Below, in pieces: positions 3,312 to 62,337 of a stretch of DNA of 64,000 bases. Within the stretch, counting starts at the first letter, position 1. Each line of letters begins with the position of its first letter. This DNA comes from a virus (Duplodnaviria > Caudoviricetes). The stretch lies in the IMG/VR virus record IMGVR_UViG_3300031908_000001, positions 1-64,000 of that record; one strand, 5' to 3'. The notes beneath the pieces were generated by a model that saw only the letters and a program-made list of their open reading frames with translations, ran no database searches and had not been told where the DNA came from. Position numbers and translations under genes: made by a program.

Positions 3312-4334
3312 TTACTTTAAAATTATATTATTGATAGTATTTAATCCAAATTCAAGTGGTGATTGCAAATTATCCAAAACATCCATCAATTGATCTAGTG
3401 TGATATCTCCAGGATCACATTCAGTTAATTTTGCAACCAGAACATTAAAATATTTACTTAATTCAAATGCATACTTAAATGTATCCTTATAAGCATCTGG
3501 ATCAAACATGAGCACTATATTTTTTACTCCTGCGATCTGAAGCTTGTGTATTTGCTCATCAGAAATCTTCTTTCCAAAGCATGCTACACATTTTAACTCT
3601 GAGTCATGATACAAATTAAGTAACTTTGTTACGTTAAATTTATCAAATACACCTTCTACAGCTATTACCGTATTAGTTTTACCCCTTTGTATTTCTTCAT
3701 ATCCAAATAACATTTTGCCAAAATCAGATACAGAGTTAAGATATCTTGCATGCTTTATGCCCCTTATCTTTAAAGCTTGTACTTCCTCCTTTGTTTTTTT
3801 TGATCTAGCTATGTATCCAACACATTTTCCCCTCTCTTCTATTAAAAGAATAATTCTGTCTTTATATCTACTTAATATTTTTGATGAGCCAAATTTATAT
3901 TTTTCAAAATCCTCTGGAGTTATTCCCCTATTTTCAAGGTACTCATCTGAGTGTAATCTTTTGAATCCGGTTGGCAGTGCTTGTTCTTGTAAATATAAAC
4001 TATTTTCATCAAACCTTACTATAGTTTTTGTTAAGTTACTTAAATTTATTTTTAATAACTTTTCACTAAAGATTGAAGTGTCCCTAAATACCTTAACTAA
4101 GTCCAATCTATCTAAGTGTTTAAGAAGGGTATATAATCCTCCCTCCTCATTACACTTTAGGCACCTAAACTGATATGATTTATTATTCCCCCTCTTGTCT
4201 ATTTCATCAGTTTTTTTCTTAATAAAGAAGTGACCATCTCCCTTTTGGCAATAAGGACAATCTGCGGTTAATTGATTTTTGTTTGCTGGATGAACGTTTT
4301 CAAGAAGTTCATATAAATCTATATCTGCAACCAT
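3312..4334 (-). CDS. DNA primase (Zn finger + Toprim)
   Basis: CPYC...CLKC zinc finger, YLENRGI, RYLNS, Toprim AVEGVFD and MFDPD. Confidence 0.88.
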   Translation of the reverse strand: MVADIDLYELLENVHPANKNQLTADCPYCQKGDGHFFIKKKTDEIDKRGNNKSYQFRCLKCNEEGGLYTLLKHLDRLDLVKVFRDTSIFSEKLLKINLSNLTKTIVRFDENSLYLQEQALPTGFKRLHSDEYLENRGITPEDFEKYKFGSSKILSRYKDRIILLIEERGKCVGYIARSKKTKEEVQALKIRGIKHARYLNSVSDFGKMLFGYEEIQRGKTNTVIAVEGVFDKFNVTKLLNLYHDSELKCVACFGKKISDEQIHKLQIAGVKNIVLMFDPDAYKDTFKYAFELSKYFNVLVAKLTECDPGDITLDQLMDVLDNLQSPLEFGLNTINNIILK

Positions 4335-4352
4335 GAATTTTATTAATATATA

Positions 4353-5021
4353 TTAATCCTCATCATCAAAACTATTAATAGTTTTTTCTTTACTCCATGC
4401 ATCAGAAAAATCCTTATCCTTAAATAAGGAAGCAAGTCCGGTTATTTGTTTTAATCTTAAAAGCTCATCTCTGTCCATTCCAACATGTTTTAATATCCAT
4501 GCATCACTCATTCCGGCATTTGTAAGCTCTGCAACAATGTTTGACATAAGATCTATAGAATGCGATCCCCTGGCCCTATTATGTCTTATTGTTGAAGCCA
4601 TTCTGTCAGAAATATCTTTTTGACTTTTTCTTATAAATGTTAGTGGCACCCTTCCGTATGTAGATTCACTTATATCTGGATACATTCTTTCCATTAATCT
4701 TCTATGAAATCCATCAACAATTTTGATATTATTCCCCTCATTAAAAGTAACTATGCTCATTGTATATCCGTCTTCGGCAATGGAGGTATGAAGCAAATCA
4801 AGTTCCGGTTTTGCAATAGCGTTAGGATTATATTCATTTGCCTCAACATCTTCAGATTTTTTCCATAAAACACAATCCACTGGATGGTGTTTGAGTGGAC
4901 TAACCTCATGAAGCCCCATTCTAATTTCATTTAATGCTTCTATTTTTTCATCAGTACCATCTATACTATTAATTGTGTCTTGCAAAAATAAAATTATTTC
5001 TTTCAAGTCTTCCTTGCTCAT
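4353..5021 (-). CDS. ibrB: IbrB-like ParB/Srx-domain protein
   Basis: HPVDCVLW, NEYNPN, SIAEDGYT, IVDGFHR, STIRHNRARG, LLRLKQITGLASLF; directly follows an IbrA-like gene. Confidence 0.88.
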   Translation of the reverse strand: MSKEDLKEIILFLQDTINSIDGTDEKIEALNEIRMGLHEVSPLKHHPVDCVLWKKSEDVEANEYNPNAIAKPELDLLHTSIAEDGYTMSIVTFNEGNNIKIVDGFHRRLMERMYPDISESTYGRVPLTFIRKSQKDISDRMASTIRHNRARGSHSIDLMSNIVAELTNAGMSDAWILKHVGMDRDELLRLKQITGLASLFKDKDFSDAWSKEKTINSFDDED

Positions 5022-6310
5022 ATATTTTTTCTTTGAGTTAATACATTTTTATATTTTGCTTCCGCCCCCTGCCTTAATTCATTTTCCTCTTTGGTCAAAG
5101 AGAATCCCATATACTTACATAAAAAATCATTCTTTAATATACATACGCACATCCTTTTATATGTTGGTATTTCTGTAAATTCTGTAATATCAATATCATC
5201 CAAATATTCCATCGTCACTGGCAATTTTCTTGTACTGTAATTTGTTTCTTTGCCAACCTTATGTGGAATATTTAATTCTATCAGCTTATTAATGACCTCC
5301 TGTGAAAGACATCCACCCTTCTCCCGCCAAAATTTCTGACTGGTTAGAAGTTTTTTTTTATAATTATCTCTTGTTGATGCTGGAAGAGTTTTTAATAAAA
5401 ATTCCAGATAGCTCTTCCAATTGTGTCCAGGTGGCAATTTTATTGATCTCCAGCCCATTGCAGTTGTTCCGCCATATAATCCAGTAAAATTAACACCATT
5501 CACCCTAGATATCAATTTACCCCATGTATTTGGCTCAATAACCCTATACAATTTTAAACTCTCTTGAGCAGTAGATAAAAATGGACTTGCCACTCTTTGC
5601 TGATCTATTGTCACTCCAGCCTTGTAAAATATATCATAAAGCTTATTGTAATCCCACTCAAATTTGCAATTTGCTATCCATATATCTTCAGTTATCCAAT
5701 CGTATACCGGATATGCATTATATACATTTTCATACATTTCCTTTGTCCAAGGGATATCATTATATTTTCTATTGTTTCTATCACTATGTATTGCCCTCCA
5801 TCTATTTAAACTTTCTTGAGTTCTAATTCCAACTAGACATGCTGTTTTAACTGCCCCCGTTTTTTCATGTATCCATCCACTAAATTTTTCTTGAAATTCA
5901 TAATCCCACATTGTTTCAGAAAAAAAAGGAAAATCTTTCTCTGTATAGCATTTCTTTGGAAGCTTGCTTACCCATAGGTCTTTCTTCTCTCTGTCCCAAG
6001 GTCTCCAATAATTTTCATGCATTGATGTACAGGTCGTTACTTTAAACGGTACACAGCACCTATATACTTCCAAAATATCAGAGTTTTTTTCTAATTCCCT
6101 ATCTACGTATTCAGTAGTTAAAGTATATTGTGCTTCATAATCAAGATGAAAAACACCTAATTTTCTATTTAATTTATTTTTTCTAATGTAGTCTATGCAG
6201 AGATTTAGCAAAACACCGCTGTCCTTTCCACCGCTGAAGGAAACATATACATTGTCAAACTCTTCAAATATGGTTTTTAATCTTTTCTGAGAAGCTTCAA
6301 ATACGTTCAT
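5018..6310 (-). CDS. ibrA: IbrA-like PAPS-reductase family / DUF3440 protein
   Basis: PP-loop SFSGGKDS, VGIRTQESLNRW, YPVYDW, RVASPF, RVNGVNF and C-terminal PTYKRMCVCILKND. Confidence 0.9.
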   Translation of the reverse strand: MNVFEASQKRLKTIFEEFDNVYVSFSGGKDSGVLLNLCIDYIRKNKLNRKLGVFHLDYEAQYTLTTEYVDRELEKNSDILEVYRCCVPFKVTTCTSMHENYWRPWDREKKDLWVSKLPKKCYTEKDFPFFSETMWDYEFQEKFSGWIHEKTGAVKTACLVGIRTQESLNRWRAIHSDRNNRKYNDIPWTKEMYENVYNAYPVYDWITEDIWIANCKFEWDYNKLYDIFYKAGVTIDQQRVASPFLSTAQESLKLYRVIEPNTWGKLISRVNGVNFTGLYGGTTAMGWRSIKLPPGHNWKSYLEFLLKTLPASTRDNYKKKLLTSQKFWREKGGCLSQEVINKLIELNIPHKVGKETNYSTRKLPVTMEYLDDIDITEFTEIPTYKRMCVCILKNDFLCKYMGFSLTKEENELRQGAEAKYKNVLTQRKNI

Positions 6311-6313
6311 TGT

Positions 6314-6967
6314 TTAAGACTTTAAAAGATGCATACTAAACCACTTACTTCCTTTGCCAGTTGTTTTAAATCCTAAAGATTCCCAATTTTTAATATCATC
6401 AATCTTAACATAAGATGACGCGATCTCATAAGCAGATTCTTTAAAATCTTTTAATATTTCAGATAATAATGTCTTGAAAGTCTGAACATGAGCTGCTTTT
6501 GGATCTATATAAACATTTCTAATTGCAAATGTTGACTTTAAGCAAACTATAGATGCAAATGCAGCCAAGCCGCTTTTTCCATGCATCAAGTACCATTTAT
6601 GATCTTGTGTAGTTACCACCGGATAATTATCAAAATACTTTCTGCCGGCCACACTCATGACAATTGGGCCAATTTCAGAATATACTTGAGGGTCTAGCCC
6701 ATCTATCTTTTTAATATTTGTTTCCATACTTTGAATTTTACGCTCTCTTAATTCAATTTGTTTTAATAAAGAATAATATTCACTTTTTGGCTTTGAAAAT
6801 CCCAAAGATTCTAAACAGATATCGTTTTTTAATATTGCTCTACAAATCGCCTTATATGATGGAGCTTTATTAAGTGCATCCAGTCTAATTGGAACTTCAT
6901 CTGGAATTCCTTCATGATAATCCCTAGATTCCCAGGTTTCAATGTATTGATTAATTTTATCTATCAT
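6314..6967 (-). CDS. DUF3440 C-terminal-like domain fused to a GNAT-like domain
   Basis: N-terminal APSYKAICRAILKNDICLESLGFSKPK aligns with IbrA C-terminal IPTYKRMCVCILKNDFLCKYMGFSLTK. The C-terminal half has a GNAT-like pattern (AAFASI, IRNVYIDP, KNWESLGFK). Confidence 0.6.
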   Translation of the reverse strand: MIDKINQYIETWESRDYHEGIPDEVPIRLDALNKAPSYKAICRAILKNDICLESLGFSKPKSEYYSLLKQIELRERKIQSMETNIKKIDGLDPQVYSEIGPIVMSVAGRKYFDNYPVVTTQDHKWYLMHGKSGLAAFASIVCLKSTFAIRNVYIDPKAAHVQTFKTLLSEILKDFKESAYEIASSYVKIDDIKNWESLGFKTTGKGSKWFSMHLLKS

Positions 6968-6977
6968 TTAGAATTAT

Positions 6978-6999
6978 CAAATGTAATAAAAACTTTTAT
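6978..6999 (-). promoter_or_regulatory. promoter (-7 TACATTTG) plus abutting operator-like box upstream of the DUF3440-GNAT/ibrA/ibrB genes
   Basis: CAAATGTA 6978-6985 followed directly by ATAAAAACTTTTAT 6986-6999. Confidence 0.6.
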
Positions 7000-7367
7000 A
7001 ATAAACTAGACTCAAACTGAATAATTATTTTTTCTGCTGCTTCATTGGCCCTATTTTGCTCTTCTGAACTCAAATTACCCCAAGCAATTCTGGTTAAAAT
7101 TTCTGGCACCTTGTGCAAATACGAGCAAGATGCTTGACCTAGCCAAGATCTTCTATTGCAAGACACATTTGTCAAGTTTACCTGAGAAGATACTGGCCAA
7201 TGAATCAATATCAGTTTCATGATTCTCTCAAAATCACCAACATTTCTTAATAAATCTTCTGCTTTTTTAATTAATAAATCATCATTTGTGTCTGAAATAT
7301 AATCATACATTCCATTTTGAAAATCTTCCCATTTTTCATATCTATGAAATATTCTCTTAATTTTCAT
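6996..7367 (-). CDS. conserved hypothetical phage protein upstream of the IbrAB-like genes
   Basis: Likely start at [21 protein letters not shown] (ATG 7367, avoiding a long overlap with recA); [11 protein letters not shown] motif. Confidence 0.65.
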
Positions 7368-8358
7368 ACCCCATTTTTCCCAAAAGCTCTGATTCAATTA
7401 ATTCCAATATTTCTGGATTATCCTCTAATGTCTTTTTTACATTTTCTCTGCCTTGACCAATTTTTTGATCTAGGAAAGAGTACCATGAGCCAGTTTTTTT
7501 GATAATTTCAAACTCTTCTGCTAGATCAACTACTTCACCCATCCTATCTATTCCAACTCCAAATACGACATCAAAGGCGGCTGTCTTAAAAGGAGGTGCC
7601 ACTTTATTTTTAATTACTTTTACTTTTACCTTACTGTTCACCACATTTCCATCCTTATCTTTATCTCCCGATGTTCTTGACACTTCTATTCTTTGACTGG
7701 CATAGAATTTAAGAGCGTTGCCGCCGGTAGTTGTAATTGGATTGCCAAAAACAATTCCTATTTTTTCCCTTGTTTGATTTATGAATATACATAGAGTATT
7801 AGTCTTGTGTATATTTCCGGTCATTTTTCTTAATGCCTGACCCATTAGTCTAGCCATGATCCCCATTTTAGATTCTCCCATCTCTCCATCCAGCTCAGAT
7901 TTAGGAACAAGAGCGGCTACTGAATCAATAACCACTACTCCAATTTCACCAGATTTAACCAATATATCGGCAATTTCCAATGCCTGTTCTGCATTATCTG
8001 GTTGTGCAAATATTAAATTATCAACATCAACTCCAAGTAATTTGGCGTATCTTATATCAAAAGCATGCTCTACATCAATAAAGGCAACCTTGCCCCCCTT
8101 TTTTTGACATTCTGCCATAGTATGAATTGCAATTGTTGTTTTTCCTGAAGATTCTGCACCATATATTTCAACTATTCTTCCCTTCGGAAATCCACCCACT
8201 CCCAGGGCAAGATCTAAAGTAAGAGAGCCAGAAGAAATCACTTCTATATCATTAACCGGCTTATCTCCCAGGGCTTGAACTGTTCCTTTTCCATATGTCT
8301 TGTTTATCTGATCAAGGGCTGAAGCCAAACCACCCGATTTTTTTGATTCTTTTTCCAT
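7357..8358 (-). CDS. recA: recombinase RecA
   Basis: [16 protein letters not shown] Walker [45 protein letters not shown]. Confidence 0.97.
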
Positions 8359-9352: not shown

Positions 9353-9810
9353 TCTAATTGTTTTAATCCCTGACTATTTGGAATAATTATATCTGCCTTC
9401 TCCCATAAATTAATATTGAAAGAGTCTTTTGCCTCTTCAGGCTTTCTATTGTCATATACTCCAATGATAAGATCAAACACTCCTTGCCTCAAACATTCAA
9501 CAATTTCAGCATCATCTCTCATTCCTACATATATATCTGAAGATGCCATTATTCCCTTTGCAAGTTTTGCCTTATCTTCTCTGTTATATTCACAAATTAA
9601 ATCATACCATTCCGCTCTGTGGTTTCCTCTGTCATTAAAACACTCTTCCGGTGTATTATAGCCATATTTTTCTCTAAGAGCATCATAAATAAATATCTCT
9701 GACGCGGCTTGAGATGAACTTTTAAAAGTATATCCAAAATGTTGATTTAACATTTCAGCTACTGTATCTTTCCCGTGCCTAGCTGAACCGATAATAAGCA
9801 GTTTTTTCAT
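9316..9810 (-). CDS. deoxynucleoside monophosphate kinase-like P-loop protein
   Basis: MKKLLIIGSARHGKDT P-loop and IYVGMR; start taken at ATG 9810. Confidence 0.75.
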   Translation of the reverse strand: MKKLLIIGSARHGKDTVAEMLNQHFGYTFKSSSQAASEIFIYDALREKYGYNTPEECFNDRGNHRAEWYDLICEYNREDKAKLAKGIMASSDIYVGMRDDAEIVECLRQGVFDLIIGVYDNRKPEEAKDSFNINLWEKADIIIPNSQGLKQLEWRVLNLEPLLV

Positions 9811-10250
9811 TATTTTATAAGTTTTAAATTGATTAATAATTCTTCCATTTTTACCCAATCAACAAACGCTCTTTCCTCTGATCCTGGCAATGGATATATT
9901 AATGGACACCCAATTGCTATATCATCAATCATATAGTTTCCATATGCCTTTGGAGAAGTTGTCCAAGTTTTCTGATCTGGATTGGTTTGCACTCCATAAA
10001 GTGAAATATTATGCATTTCAAACCAACTAATTGCCTGAGTTAGATATTCCCCTATATACAAATGAATATCTGGATCGGTTGAGCTTGCGGCAAAATTTTC
10101 TGGGTGATCGCATCTCATTGTAAATAAAATCAACTTATGTCCGGCATCCACTAATTTTTTAAGAACTGGAGCTGCGCCAATTTCTTCTCCTAATTTTGGA
10201 AATGCATGCTTAACACATGTTCCATCAAAATCAACAAGTATTACTGCCAT
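9810..10250 (-). CDS. HAD-superfamily hydrolase-like protein
   Basis: ILVDFDGT, LILFTMR, K...YMIDD HAD motifs. Confidence 0.8.
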   Translation of the reverse strand: MAVILVDFDGTCVKHAFPKLGEEIGAAPVLKKLVDAGHKLILFTMRCDHPENFAASSTDPDIHLYIGEYLTQAISWFEMHNISLYGVQTNPDQKTWTTSPKAYGNYMIDDIAIGCPLIYPLPGSEERAFVDWVKMEELLINLKLIK

Positions 10251-12610: not shown

Positions 12611-13465
12611 TTATTTGATCGATGTTGTTCTGTAAGTAAGATAGTTTTTTAATTCTCTTAATGTAACCTCTTGCTCAAGATACATTACGACATTATTAAA
12701 TGTTTCTATTCTCTCATTATCATTTCCGGCAATATCTTTCTGTACTGATTTCAAAAGCTGTACTATATGAGAAACCTTTCTTTCGTTCTTCTTATCTGAT
12801 ATTACACTAACGTGCTTTGATGTTATCCTGTCTTTTCCCTCTTTTTTTGCATTCTCCTTGGCCTCTTCTATGATTTCTTTTTGTCTGTCTTCATCTTTTG
12901 CAGATCTCATTATTTCTGAGGCAGTGGTTGCGCTCATTACATTTTCCAGGATTTGATTTTTTACAAATTTTGGAGCTTTGCTGACAAGTATCATGTTTGA
13001 TACATGAGCCTCTGTTTTACCGATCTTTCTTGCAATATCTTTTCTTGCCCATCCGTACGCCTCTAATCTGGAAAATAGATCTCCTTCTTCAAGTGGAGTA
13101 AGACGCTTTCCAGAATTTAAAACAAACATATCTACTAATCTTTGCTCATTAGTATAACCCCGCTCTTCTAAAATAAAAGGAACTTTCTTAATCAATGTTC
13201 CCTCACTTATTGCCTTCATCACTGCGGTATATCTTCTGAATCCATCTGTAAGTCGGAATTTTTCGCCATCCTTTTCTCTGAATCCCCTTAATGGTTGCTT
13301 AACACCGTTTTCTATAATTGAATTTTTTAGCTCATCAATATCACCATAATCTTGGCGAACGTTAAAACTTTCATCCGCAATTATTAGAGCAGGATCAAGC
13401 ATTAATAAATCTTTTCTTGTTATTGGTCTTACGTCTGTTGAATTAATAGCTGCGTTCTTTTCCAT
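12611..13465 (-). CDS. ParB/Spo0J-like partition protein (ParB-N + HTH)
   Basis: FNVRQDYGDIDELKNSIIENGVKQPL, LTDGFRRYTA, N..KRLTPLE and HTH RKDIARKIGKTEAHVSNMI. Confidence 0.85.
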   Translation of the reverse strand: MEKNAAINSTDVRPITRKDLLMLDPALIIADESFNVRQDYGDIDELKNSIIENGVKQPLRGFREKDGEKFRLTDGFRRYTAVMKAISEGTLIKKVPFILEERGYTNEQRLVDMFVLNSGKRLTPLEEGDLFSRLEAYGWARKDIARKIGKTEAHVSNMILVSKAPKFVKNQILENVMSATTASEIMRSAKDEDRQKEIIEEAKENAKKEGKDRITSKHVSVISDKKNERKVSHIVQLLKSVQKDIAGNDNERIETFNNVVMYLEQEVTLRELKNYLTYRTTSIK

Positions 13466-15190: not shown

Positions 15191-15331
15191 TTTTATTAAA
15201 TTATTTTAAGTAAAAGTAGCGATTTATTTTATTATTTGAAAATAATTAAGTAATTTAAAATATTATAAAAACTTTTATCATTTAATGGTTACATTAATTA
15301 TTAAATAAGTATAAATAATAAAGATCGTAAA

Positions 15332-22283: not shown

Positions 22284-22680
22284 AAGTTATTAAAATTAAA
22301 AGTGAAAATATAAATAATATGACTCTTGTTTTAAAATTAAAATTCCATTCTGCTGTTGATGTTGTAGAATCACTCCAATACCCCCTATAAGCATTATCTA
22401 TTTTATTTCTGGATTCATAATATGAACTATTGTGAAAAAATGGAAATGAAATCAAATAACAGATCTCGCACAATATTAAATCTAAAGGAATTAAAAACTT
22501 TAACCACCAGCCCAAAGCTATTAAAACTATTAAAATTGAAATTGAAGCTCTTTCTCCATAAAATATTTTATGTTCATCTATCTTAAAAGAATCCGCCCCC
22601 TTTCTCCCCCATAAAACTCCATCTTTTATTCCTGAGAATACTGAATACATTGATCTTATTAAATAAATTAATATTGACAT
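22255..22680 (-). CDS. membrane protein
   Basis: Several hydrophobic helices. Confidence 0.55.
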   Translation of the reverse strand: MSILIYLIRSMYSVFSGIKDGVLWGRKGADSFKIDEHKIFYGERASISILIVLIALGWWLKFLIPLDLILCEICYLISFPFFHNSSYYESRNKIDNAYRGYWSDSTTSTAEWNFNFKTRVILFIFSLLILITYEIFKYIIW

Positions 22681-62297: not shown

Positions 62298-62337
62298 CAA
62301 ATGTAATACAAAGTTTTTGAATAATAAAAACTTTTAT
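62298..62337 (-). promoter_or_regulatory. promoter (-7 TACATTTG) with two operator-like boxes
   Basis: CAAATGTA 62298-62305, then ATACAAAGTTTTTG and ATAAAAACTTTTAT. Confidence 0.6.

Follow-up and report, generated by a model that had tools for sequence, protein, structure and literature searches.

A four-gene IbrA/IbrB-type cassette with a tail::GNAT fusion in the replication region of a tailed phage: a candidate DNA-modifying module

We analyzed a stretch of 64,000 nucleotides (nt), here called the window, that makes up positions 1 to 64,000 of IMG/VR virus record IMGVR_UViG_3300031908_000001 (Duplodnaviria; Caudoviricetes). Between the genes for RecA and primase lies a cassette of four coupled minus-strand genes (4353-7367) encoding, in order of transcription, a 123-amino-acid (aa) protein that we call p123, a 217-aa protein, an IbrA-like PP-loop protein and an IbrB-like ParB/Srx protein. 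An earlier interpretation made from the letters alone (the sequence-only reading) had picked out this gene set together with two motifs, SFSGGKDS and IVDGFHR, and open reading frames (ORFs), Pfam and PHROG matches confirmed both. The locus carries the two defining sequence features of the IbrA/IbrB (YbdN/YbdM) module, and by these features we class it as a member, that is, as a variant of a known but unsolved kind. Our searches of the literature on DUF3440, on IbrA/IbrB and on pairs of PAPS reductase and ParB returned annotations and surveys, and no paper that defines the biochemistry or mechanism.

Proteins encoded by the cassette

The IbrA-like protein matched PAPS_reduct (PF01507; E = 7e-11, residues 21-228), DUF3440 (PF11922; E = 3e-87, residues 232-411, model positions 1-181 of 182) and PHROG 2302 (E = 4e-103). 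SFSGGKDS is present, and its SGGKDS part is conserved. Across 61 diverse viral sequences, the residues that are kept include S26, G28, K29, D30 and S31, D57 and E59, C86, and G161, R163, E166, S167 and R170; further along they include N198, Y200, P201, D204, W205, D209 and W211, then N222, Y225 and D226, and finally N394 and D395. They delineate the PP-loop, the motifs G-x-R-x-x-E-S-x-x-R and Y-P-x-x-D-W-x-x-x-D-x-W, and an N-D pair in the extreme tail. C86 is the sole well-conserved cysteine (57/61); the same alignment contains no conserved cysteine after the PP-loop domain and no cysteine cluster. The PP-loop region showed weak NCBIfam similarity to TilS, TtcA and LarE. One IbrA homologue from a metagenome (P0091, 840 aa) is interrupted by an intein with a LAGLIDADG endonuclease.

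IbrB is co-oriented with IbrA and translationally coupled to it through a 4-nt overlap. It matched PHROG 2159 (“ParB-like”; E = 2e-64); IbrB itself had no Pfam match, and its relatives match ParB_N. IVDGFHR contains the DGxHR box (D103, G104, H106, R107), which is conserved in 64/64 sequences; an arginine-rich motif, T-x-R-H-N-R-A-R-G-x-H (T144, R146, H147, N148, R149, A150, R151, G152, H154), is conserved in this set too. No helix-turn-helix (HTH) domain was detected in IbrB, and a sequence search of the PDB returned no match for IbrA or IbrB. The replication module encodes a second, canonical ParB-like protein (12611-13465, minus strand) at a distance of 7 kb from IbrB; it matched ParB_N weakly, HTH_ParB (E = 4e-8), KorB and PHROG 1033 (E = 9e-49).

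The ATG start of p123 is backed by an alignment of 26 homologues. We found 29 homologues, 43 to 51% identical, with W13, E14, D15, G19, N64, N67, N71, W75, G77, C81, E89, T92, R93, W96 and N108 invariant; the window protein is without a C-terminal extension seen in relatives. The AlphaFold2 (AF2) model has six helices, is all-helical and reaches a predicted local distance difference test score (pLDDT) of 95.8. No relative was found in the PDB by Foldseek (best E = 1.2) or by VIA-align over 48,161 chains (best Z = 4.5), the ESM Atlas gave no usable match, and Pfam, PHROG, NCBIfam and PADLOC hold nothing for the family. A new element is therefore a protein that is predicted, with confidence, to adopt a fold without any solved relative. 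A pattern-based scan of 185,579 species placed p123 in 8 contigs of metagenome-assembled genomes, so that it is nearly absent from cellular genomes; p123 is specific to phage-type IbrA/IbrB (IbrAB) modules.

The 217-aa protein joins two modules in one reading frame. Its N terminus matched Pfam DUF3440 positions 138-179 (E = 7e-7) and is 41% identical over 37 residues to IbrA residues 373-409. The alignment shows that this tail module (residues 1-77) is paralogous to the C-terminal ~75 residues of IbrA, where DUF3440 ends. Elsewhere the tail module is a free-standing protein of 76 to 99 aa, and these free tails conserve Y8, W12, Y17, GIPDE (20-24), P26, PSY (36-38), N48, D49, L52 and G56. For the tail fold, the ESM Atlas gave only matches with template modeling (TM) scores of <0.5. 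In two lineages the tail is fused to other C-terminal regions (P0003, 224 aa, from locus L005; P0004, 188 aa, from locus L004), one of which has a CCHC motif resembling a zinc knuckle; the tail thus behaves like an N-terminal adaptor that can be moved between proteins.

The C-terminal part of the 217-aa protein has a GNAT fold, as the sequence-only reading had proposed. Its AF2 model (pLDDT 95.2) gave 443 PDB matches in Foldseek at E <= 1e-3, all GNAT acyltransferases among the matches listed, with TM-scores of 0.7 to 0.76 to SACOL1063, ElaA and GCN5. A HMMER search of 1.8 billion representatives returned 45 homologues of the domain, mostly ~135 aa and free-standing, and 7 of 29 homologues matched Pfam GNAT families. 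The same reading had called the domain an acyltransferase; here the fold stands, but acyltransferase activity is uncertain because the window domain is without the canonical coenzyme A (CoA) loop. In the alignment, the segment between strand 4 and helix 3 reads DPKAAHVQTF instead of R/Q-x-x-G-x-G/A, and the closest homologues are similar. Distant members of the family (P0044, P0056, P0076 and P0051) retain R-x-x-G, and some distant members match Acetyltransf_1. CoA binding via backbone amides may survive in the window protein.

The tail::GNAT fusion was seen only in the window and is new. Met81 of the 217-aa protein lies at or next to the start position of the free-standing GNAT homologues, so the fusion looks like the product of a lost stop codon at the end of a tail gene.

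Recurrence of the module and its links to DNA

Does the gene set occur elsewhere? A scan of IMG/VR for the p123 family yielded 132 relatives, from which 80 loci were kept. IbrA adjoins p123 in all 80 viral loci, and IbrB is present wherever the contig reaches. These loci fall into two types: in type A the tail is encoded by a free gene (76 to 99 aa), and in type B IbrA is shorter and its own C terminus is the closest homologue of the free tail. Three loci (L079, L084 and L141) carry two IbrA genes, one of each type, flanking ParB and p123. The cassette is also found in the cultured phages Gaia of Mycobacterium (gp103-107), XCL1123 of Pseudoalteromonas and Amjad_SA of Pseudomonas. The four-gene set thus recurs beyond chance, and the co-occurrence predicted earlier was borne out by the neighborhood survey in many unrelated phages. 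IbrA itself is more widely distributed, with full-length copies in 41 cultured-phage records, and the IbrA/IbrB family is present in Escherichia coli, Bacteroides thetaiotaomicron and Lactococcus lactis.

A scan centered on IbrA identified at least 398 IMG/VR viral contigs, the best 80 of which were classified. p123 was present in 50 of these 80 loci, and a free tail was present in 48 of those 50. A compact SNF2-family helicase stood beside IbrA in 26/80. The two partner sets coincided in a single locus, where the SNF2 protein is 20% identical and 2.6 kb away; five loci had neither p123 nor SNF2, and most of these are truncated contigs. An IbrA 60 to 75% identical to that of the window occurs with either set. 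Partner sets are thus swapped between close IbrA relatives, which suggests that p123 plus tail and SNF2 do equivalent jobs. This mutual exclusivity, with its counts, is a new observation.

The GNAT domain also belongs to the neighborhood of IbrA, on the basis of a modest number of contig look-ups together with the IbrA-centered survey. In 9/9 homologues with evaluable flanks, GNAT lies directly against IbrA: as separate genes in the order p123, tail, GNAT, IbrA (L008 and L106); as SNF2, GNAT, IbrA, ParB (L104 and L110); or as GNAT followed by IbrA, then by ParB if the contig continues (L105, L108, L101, L123 and L131). Besides these nine, GNAT sits between IbrA and ParB in L155 and L162. That same slot between IbrA and IbrB is filled in some loci by an EctC-like cupin, which occurs in most p123-bearing loci of the IbrA-centered survey and matches Pfam Ectoine_synth over its full length (E = 3e-41); one cupin gene is L005:3322-3705. 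Genes of the module are joined in other ways too: Gaia gp104 is a cupin::ParB fusion (L003, 3748-4647), and in L119:1702-3234 the tail is fused to the N terminus of IbrA in a single 511-aa frame.

Three kinds of evidence tie the module to DNA. SNF2, Helicase_C, PAPS_reduct and DUF3440 are fused in single proteins of 870 to 898 aa, which form at least nine clusters at 90% identity. Separate SNF2 genes of ~390 to 404 aa lie directly upstream of IbrA in Streptococcus phage Pika, in Lactobacillus phage CR28 and in L104 and L110; the fusions and the adjacent helicases of Pika and CR28 form one family. In a 760-aa metagenome protein (P0090), a full IbrA including its tail is continued in frame by a complete DnaN clamp, and the join lies at the position where free tails carry a QLxLxL peptide.

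That peptide is the third link. Of 43 distinct free tails, 34 carry QLKLF, QLKLEL, QLKLKL, QWRLEL or QLRLF at the very C terminus, preceded by a charged linker that varies. The same C-terminal pattern was found in 15/1031 other ORFs of the same loci (1.5%), in 0/62 ParB proteins and in 5/20 type B IbrA proteins. The bacterial beta-clamp-binding consensus is QL[SD]LF or QLxLxL, and the free-tail peptide resembles it. In the window, the motif was not found in the 217-aa fusion, p123, IbrA or IbrB; the free-tail peptide is missing because the GNAT domain occupies its position. Other phages carry the cassette in recombination and replication regions, next to ERF, YqaJ, PD-(D/E)XK, NinG and DnaA-HTH genes. 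The SNF2-IbrA fusions, the IbrA-DnaN fusion and the clamp-like peptide give independent support to a DNA-directed role.

Genome setting and a recurrent palindrome

The source record is 108,492 bp long, with an estimated completeness of 98%. Almost all genes of the window lie on the minus strand, and G+C is ~32%. Transcription toward the cassette passes a DnaB-like helicase, several small genes, a weak dNMP-kinase-like protein, a dCMP deaminase, an exonuclease-like protein and RecA (7357-8358; Pfam E = 1e-120). Downstream follow primase (3312-4334; PHROG 47, E = 3e-34, with a weak Toprim match) and then DNA polymerase. The coordinates of the cassette are collected in Table 1. Spacing is tight: p123 overlaps the end of recA by 11 nt, stop codon included, the gap between p123 and the 217-aa gene is 28 nt, and 3 nt separate the latter from IbrA, which in turn shares 4 nt with IbrB. 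We found no near-identical DNA in cultured phages.

Table 1. Coordinates of the cassette genes, protein modules and palindrome in the window
Feature	Coordinates	Strand	Basis
p123 (all-helical partner protein, 123 aa)	6996-7367	-	homologue alignment, AF2 model
Palindrome ATAAAAACTTTTAT, possible operator, in the p123/217-aa gene gap, overlapping the p123 stop codon	6986-6999	.	recurrence in window
217-aa ORF (tail::GNAT)	6314-6967	-	Pfam, AF2, Foldseek
Tail module, residues 1-77 of the 217-aa protein	6737-6967	-	Pfam DUF3440, identity to IbrA C terminus
GNAT-fold domain, residues 78-217 of the 217-aa protein	6314-6736	-	AF2, Foldseek, Pfam matches of homologues
IbrA-like PP-loop ATP pyrophosphatase (PAPS-reductase family) with complete DUF3440	5018-6310	-	Pfam, PHROG
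IbrB-like ParB/Srx-fold protein	4353-5021	-	PHROG 2159

The sequence-only reading had also drawn on neighboring genes. Pfam confirmed the dCMP deaminase. The dNMP (deoxynucleoside monophosphate) kinase does match PHROG 139, but weakly (E = 6e-7), and the supposed HAD hydrolase (9810-10250) had no Pfam match and fell in PHROG 1238, “phosphoheptose isomerase.” The argument built on the kinase and the hydrolase is weak.

Elsewhere in the genome, we asked about other DNA-acting genes. The three main families of DNA methyltransferases (N6_N4, C5 and D12) and ThyA were not found in the 98%-complete 108-kb genome; this is compatible with the cassette being the phage's DNA-marking system, a circumstantial point that proves nothing. 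The phage's own genome has no DnaN-type clamp. It does encode a 565-aa SNF2-family helicase outside the window (G000:C1:90343-91134), which we considered as a cassette partner and rejected because it is only 20 to 25% identical to the IbrA-linked SNF2 family. Most genes between 4334 and 11975 are without a Shine-Dalgarno sequence, and their leaders are only A/T-rich. Because Shine-Dalgarno sequences are few and G+C is 32%, the sequence suggests a Bacteroidota-type host.

A promoter/operator had been proposed at 6978-6999, ahead of the last three genes. The operator part gained support from a palindrome, ATAAAANNTTTTAT, which occurs eight times in the window against 0.19 expected (6986-6999, 15265-15278, 22558-22571, 53598-53611, 53868-53881, 58241-58254, 58258-58271 and 62324-62337). 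Seven of the eight copies are intergenic, and the next minus-strand start codon follows at distances that vary from 5 to 219 nt; a 24-mer of the gap is unique, and only the 14-nt palindrome recurs. A phage regulator probably binds the palindrome, whose copy in the cassette is a possible operator. The promoter part did not hold: no sigma-70-like promoter was found on the coding strand of the 28-nt gap, and promoter-like matches in the region were no more numerous than in shuffles.

Proposed mechanism, alternatives and known systems

What might the four proteins do? Starting from the gene set, folds, conserved motifs, co-occurrence and fusions that we observed, we infer that DNA is the substrate, that p123 and the tail are adaptors, that the free tail binds the clamp, and each step of the chemistry. 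The four genes would encode one multi-subunit ATP-dependent DNA-modifying machine, its target most likely being the phage's own replicating DNA, a proposal whose chances of being right and wrong we judge to be about even. IbrA would be the catalytic core, its intact PP-loop adenylating a substrate oxygen for replacement by a nucleophile. IbrB would act as an NTP-binding or NTP-gated, DNA-engaging partner, comparable to DndB for DndC or DpdB for DpdA. Recruitment of the enzyme to DNA would fall to p123 and the tail as phage-specific adaptors, a pair for which a dedicated SNF2 DNA translocase can stand in. The GNAT domain would sit in a swappable accessory slot, held in other modules by the EctC-like cupin; it could add an acyl group to the installed moiety or, because its CoA loop looks degenerate, act as a binding or regulatory domain. 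In the window phage, GNAT is fused to the tail where the clamp peptide normally sits.

A broader form of this proposal is possible though doubtful. In it, IbrA/IbrB would be the core of an unrecognized class of replication-coupled DNA modification machines, delivered either by p123 plus a free tail that hooks the host's sliding clamp through its C-terminal QLxLxL or by a compact SNF2 translocase. The swappable GNAT/cupin slot would diversify the mark, and the window would show a slot enzyme welded onto the adaptor in place of the clamp hook.

Several points weigh against a DNA-modifying machine. In the literature searched, no modified nucleotide is reported for any phage bearing IbrAB, so that the dedicated modification pathway of the sequence-only reading gains a DNA-directed role from the fusions and the clamp-like peptide but not a modification known for the family. 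The sole functional label in that literature is “co-activators of prophage gene expression,” and SNF2 proteins and ParB folds are also found in non-modification roles. The CoA loop of the window GNAT looks degenerate. The tail::GNAT fusion rests on one metagenomic assembly, and the IbrA-DnaN fusion is a single contig in which a gene-calling or assembly artifact is possible. The clamp motif is short. The window tail is without a clamp-like peptide and its p123 without the extension of relatives, and replication coupling can therefore be inferred at the level of the family only.

One potential alternative is that the module regulates expression or DNA architecture, with IbrB forming an NTP-gated DNA clamp like ParB/KorB and IbrA serving as an ATP-using cofactor, the two together switching phage or host transcription. 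The family's sole functional label being transcriptional, the dedicated LysR repressor that controls E. coli ybdNM and the phage-specific palindrome inside the cassette all speak for it, and CTP-dependent ParB-fold clamps that control gene expression have been described (PMC12704722). Yet all catalytic PP-loop and substrate-binding motifs are kept across the 61 divergent IbrA sequences, and the accessory partners comprise a DNA motor and proteins that are enzymes or have the fold of one (GNAT, EctC-like cupin). IbrB also is without a detected HTH, whereas the other ParB of the phage has HTH_ParB, and an effect on expression could arise secondarily from DNA modification. We consider a purely regulatory module unlikely.

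Other substrates must be weighed as well. RNA, chiefly tRNA, would be the target if IbrA worked like TilS, TtcA or ThiI-type enzymes and GNAT resembled the RNA acetyltransferases of the TmcA type; tRNAs might, for example, be protected or retuned in this way while the infection proceeds. Modification of tRNA bases is the task of many PP-loop enzymes, RNA acetylation by GNATs is known from other systems, and the weak NCBIfam similarities noted above include tRNA enzymes. However, the best similarities of IbrA outside its own family are to the PAPS-reductase/DndC branch and not to tRNA enzymes, THUMP, PUA, TRAM or other RNA-binding domains were not detected, and the SNF2 fusions, DnaN fusion, clamp-like peptides and replication/recombination context point to double-stranded DNA; an RNA substrate thus seems highly improbable to us. 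The module might instead act on a nucleotide or other small molecule, or on host DNA, in counter-defense or superinfection exclusion, for example by making or destroying a signaling or precursor nucleotide or by marking host DNA. The ParB fold can serve as a kinase of small molecules or of proteins, as in Srx, SerK and SbnI; EctC and GNAT proteins are small-molecule enzymes of ectoine synthesis, and the accessory cupin matches Ectoine_synth. In temperate Streptococcus and Lactobacillus phages, moreover, the pair follows the lysis genes, and in CR28 it lies near Cro/antirepressor genes. Against such a role, no PADLOC defense model was matched beyond weak DndC/BrxP similarity, the neighborhood contains no conserved effector nuclease or toxin, and a soluble metabolite would not readily account for the links to SNF2 and the clamp. 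On balance, we regard this role as improbable.

Returning to the DNA-modifying machine, IbrA/IbrB pairs are very common, and we found no paper that defines their biochemistry. If a DNA mark is installed, it would represent a new and widespread epigenetic or anti-restriction chemistry, with a bearing on phage therapy host range, sequencing artifacts and enzyme tools. The tail::GNAT protein serves as a Rosetta-stone fusion that links an accessory enzyme to an adaptor; to this the survey adds the alternation of p123 plus tail with SNF2, the clamp-binding-like peptide on the free tail and the p123 fold. The DNA-modification hypothesis is directly testable because several cultured phages carry the full cassette.

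Among known systems, the phosphorothioation systems were the analogy drawn by the sequence-only reading. Dnd (DndBCDE with IscS/DndA), Ssp (SspABCD) and BrxP of BREX type 4 are DNA-acting systems whose PP-loop enzyme has the PAPS-reductase fold and is accompanied by a ParB-like protein (DndB in the case of DndC) and an ATPase or helicase; the window resembles them in this arrangement. DndB and the PAPS-reductase homologue DndC do occur together in Dnd (PMC12839542). However, the similarity of IbrA to DndC/BrxP is marginal (E = 5e-6, 2e-5 and 3e-4) and far under family cut-offs: 19.9 bits against TIGR03183 DndC, with a cut-off of 290, and 23.8 bits against the PADLOC DndC model. With its one well-conserved cysteine, IbrA has no set of conserved cysteines like that of the DndC iron-sulfur cluster. 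Neither the cassette nor its recurrent neighbors include a cysteine desulfurase (DndA), a DndD/SspC ATPase, DndE, DUF4007/SspB or SspA, although an IscS of the host could take the place of DndA; conversely, Dnd and Ssp have no DUF3440, p123 or tail. On these grounds, we rejected membership in Dnd, Ssp or BrxP and regard phosphorothioation of the Dnd/Ssp type as unlikely; the analogy was not supported.

The Dpd 7-deazaguanine system combines the tRNA-guanine transglycosylase (TGT) DpdA with the ParB-like ATPase DpdB; what it has in common with the window is a DNA-modifying enzyme whose obligatory partner is a ParB-fold NTPase. DpdB drives preQ0 insertion into DNA, and DNA nicking by ParB/Srx proteins has been described as well (PMC12839542). 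Unlike Dpd, the window has no TGT or QueC-family enzyme, and IbrA belongs to another PP-loop branch.

GNAT acyltransferases have the same fold as the window domain, and Mom of phage Mu is a GNAT-fold protein that modifies DNA; the window subclade differs in being without the canonical CoA pyrophosphate loop and in its fusion to a DUF3440 tail. The closest relatives of the locus are the IbrA/IbrB modules themselves. In Streptococcus and Lactobacillus phages, an SNF2 helicase accompanies IbrA/IbrB instead, and p123 and a free tail were not detected there. IbrA/IbrB of the E. coli ECOR-9 island, their K-12 paralogues YbdN/YbdM and the phage proteins of PHROGs 2302 and 2159 have the same two-gene core as the window, namely, PAPS_reduct plus DUF3440 coupled to ParB/Srx. 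Beyond the core known from E. coli, the window has p123 and a second copy of the DUF3440 tail, which is joined to GNAT.

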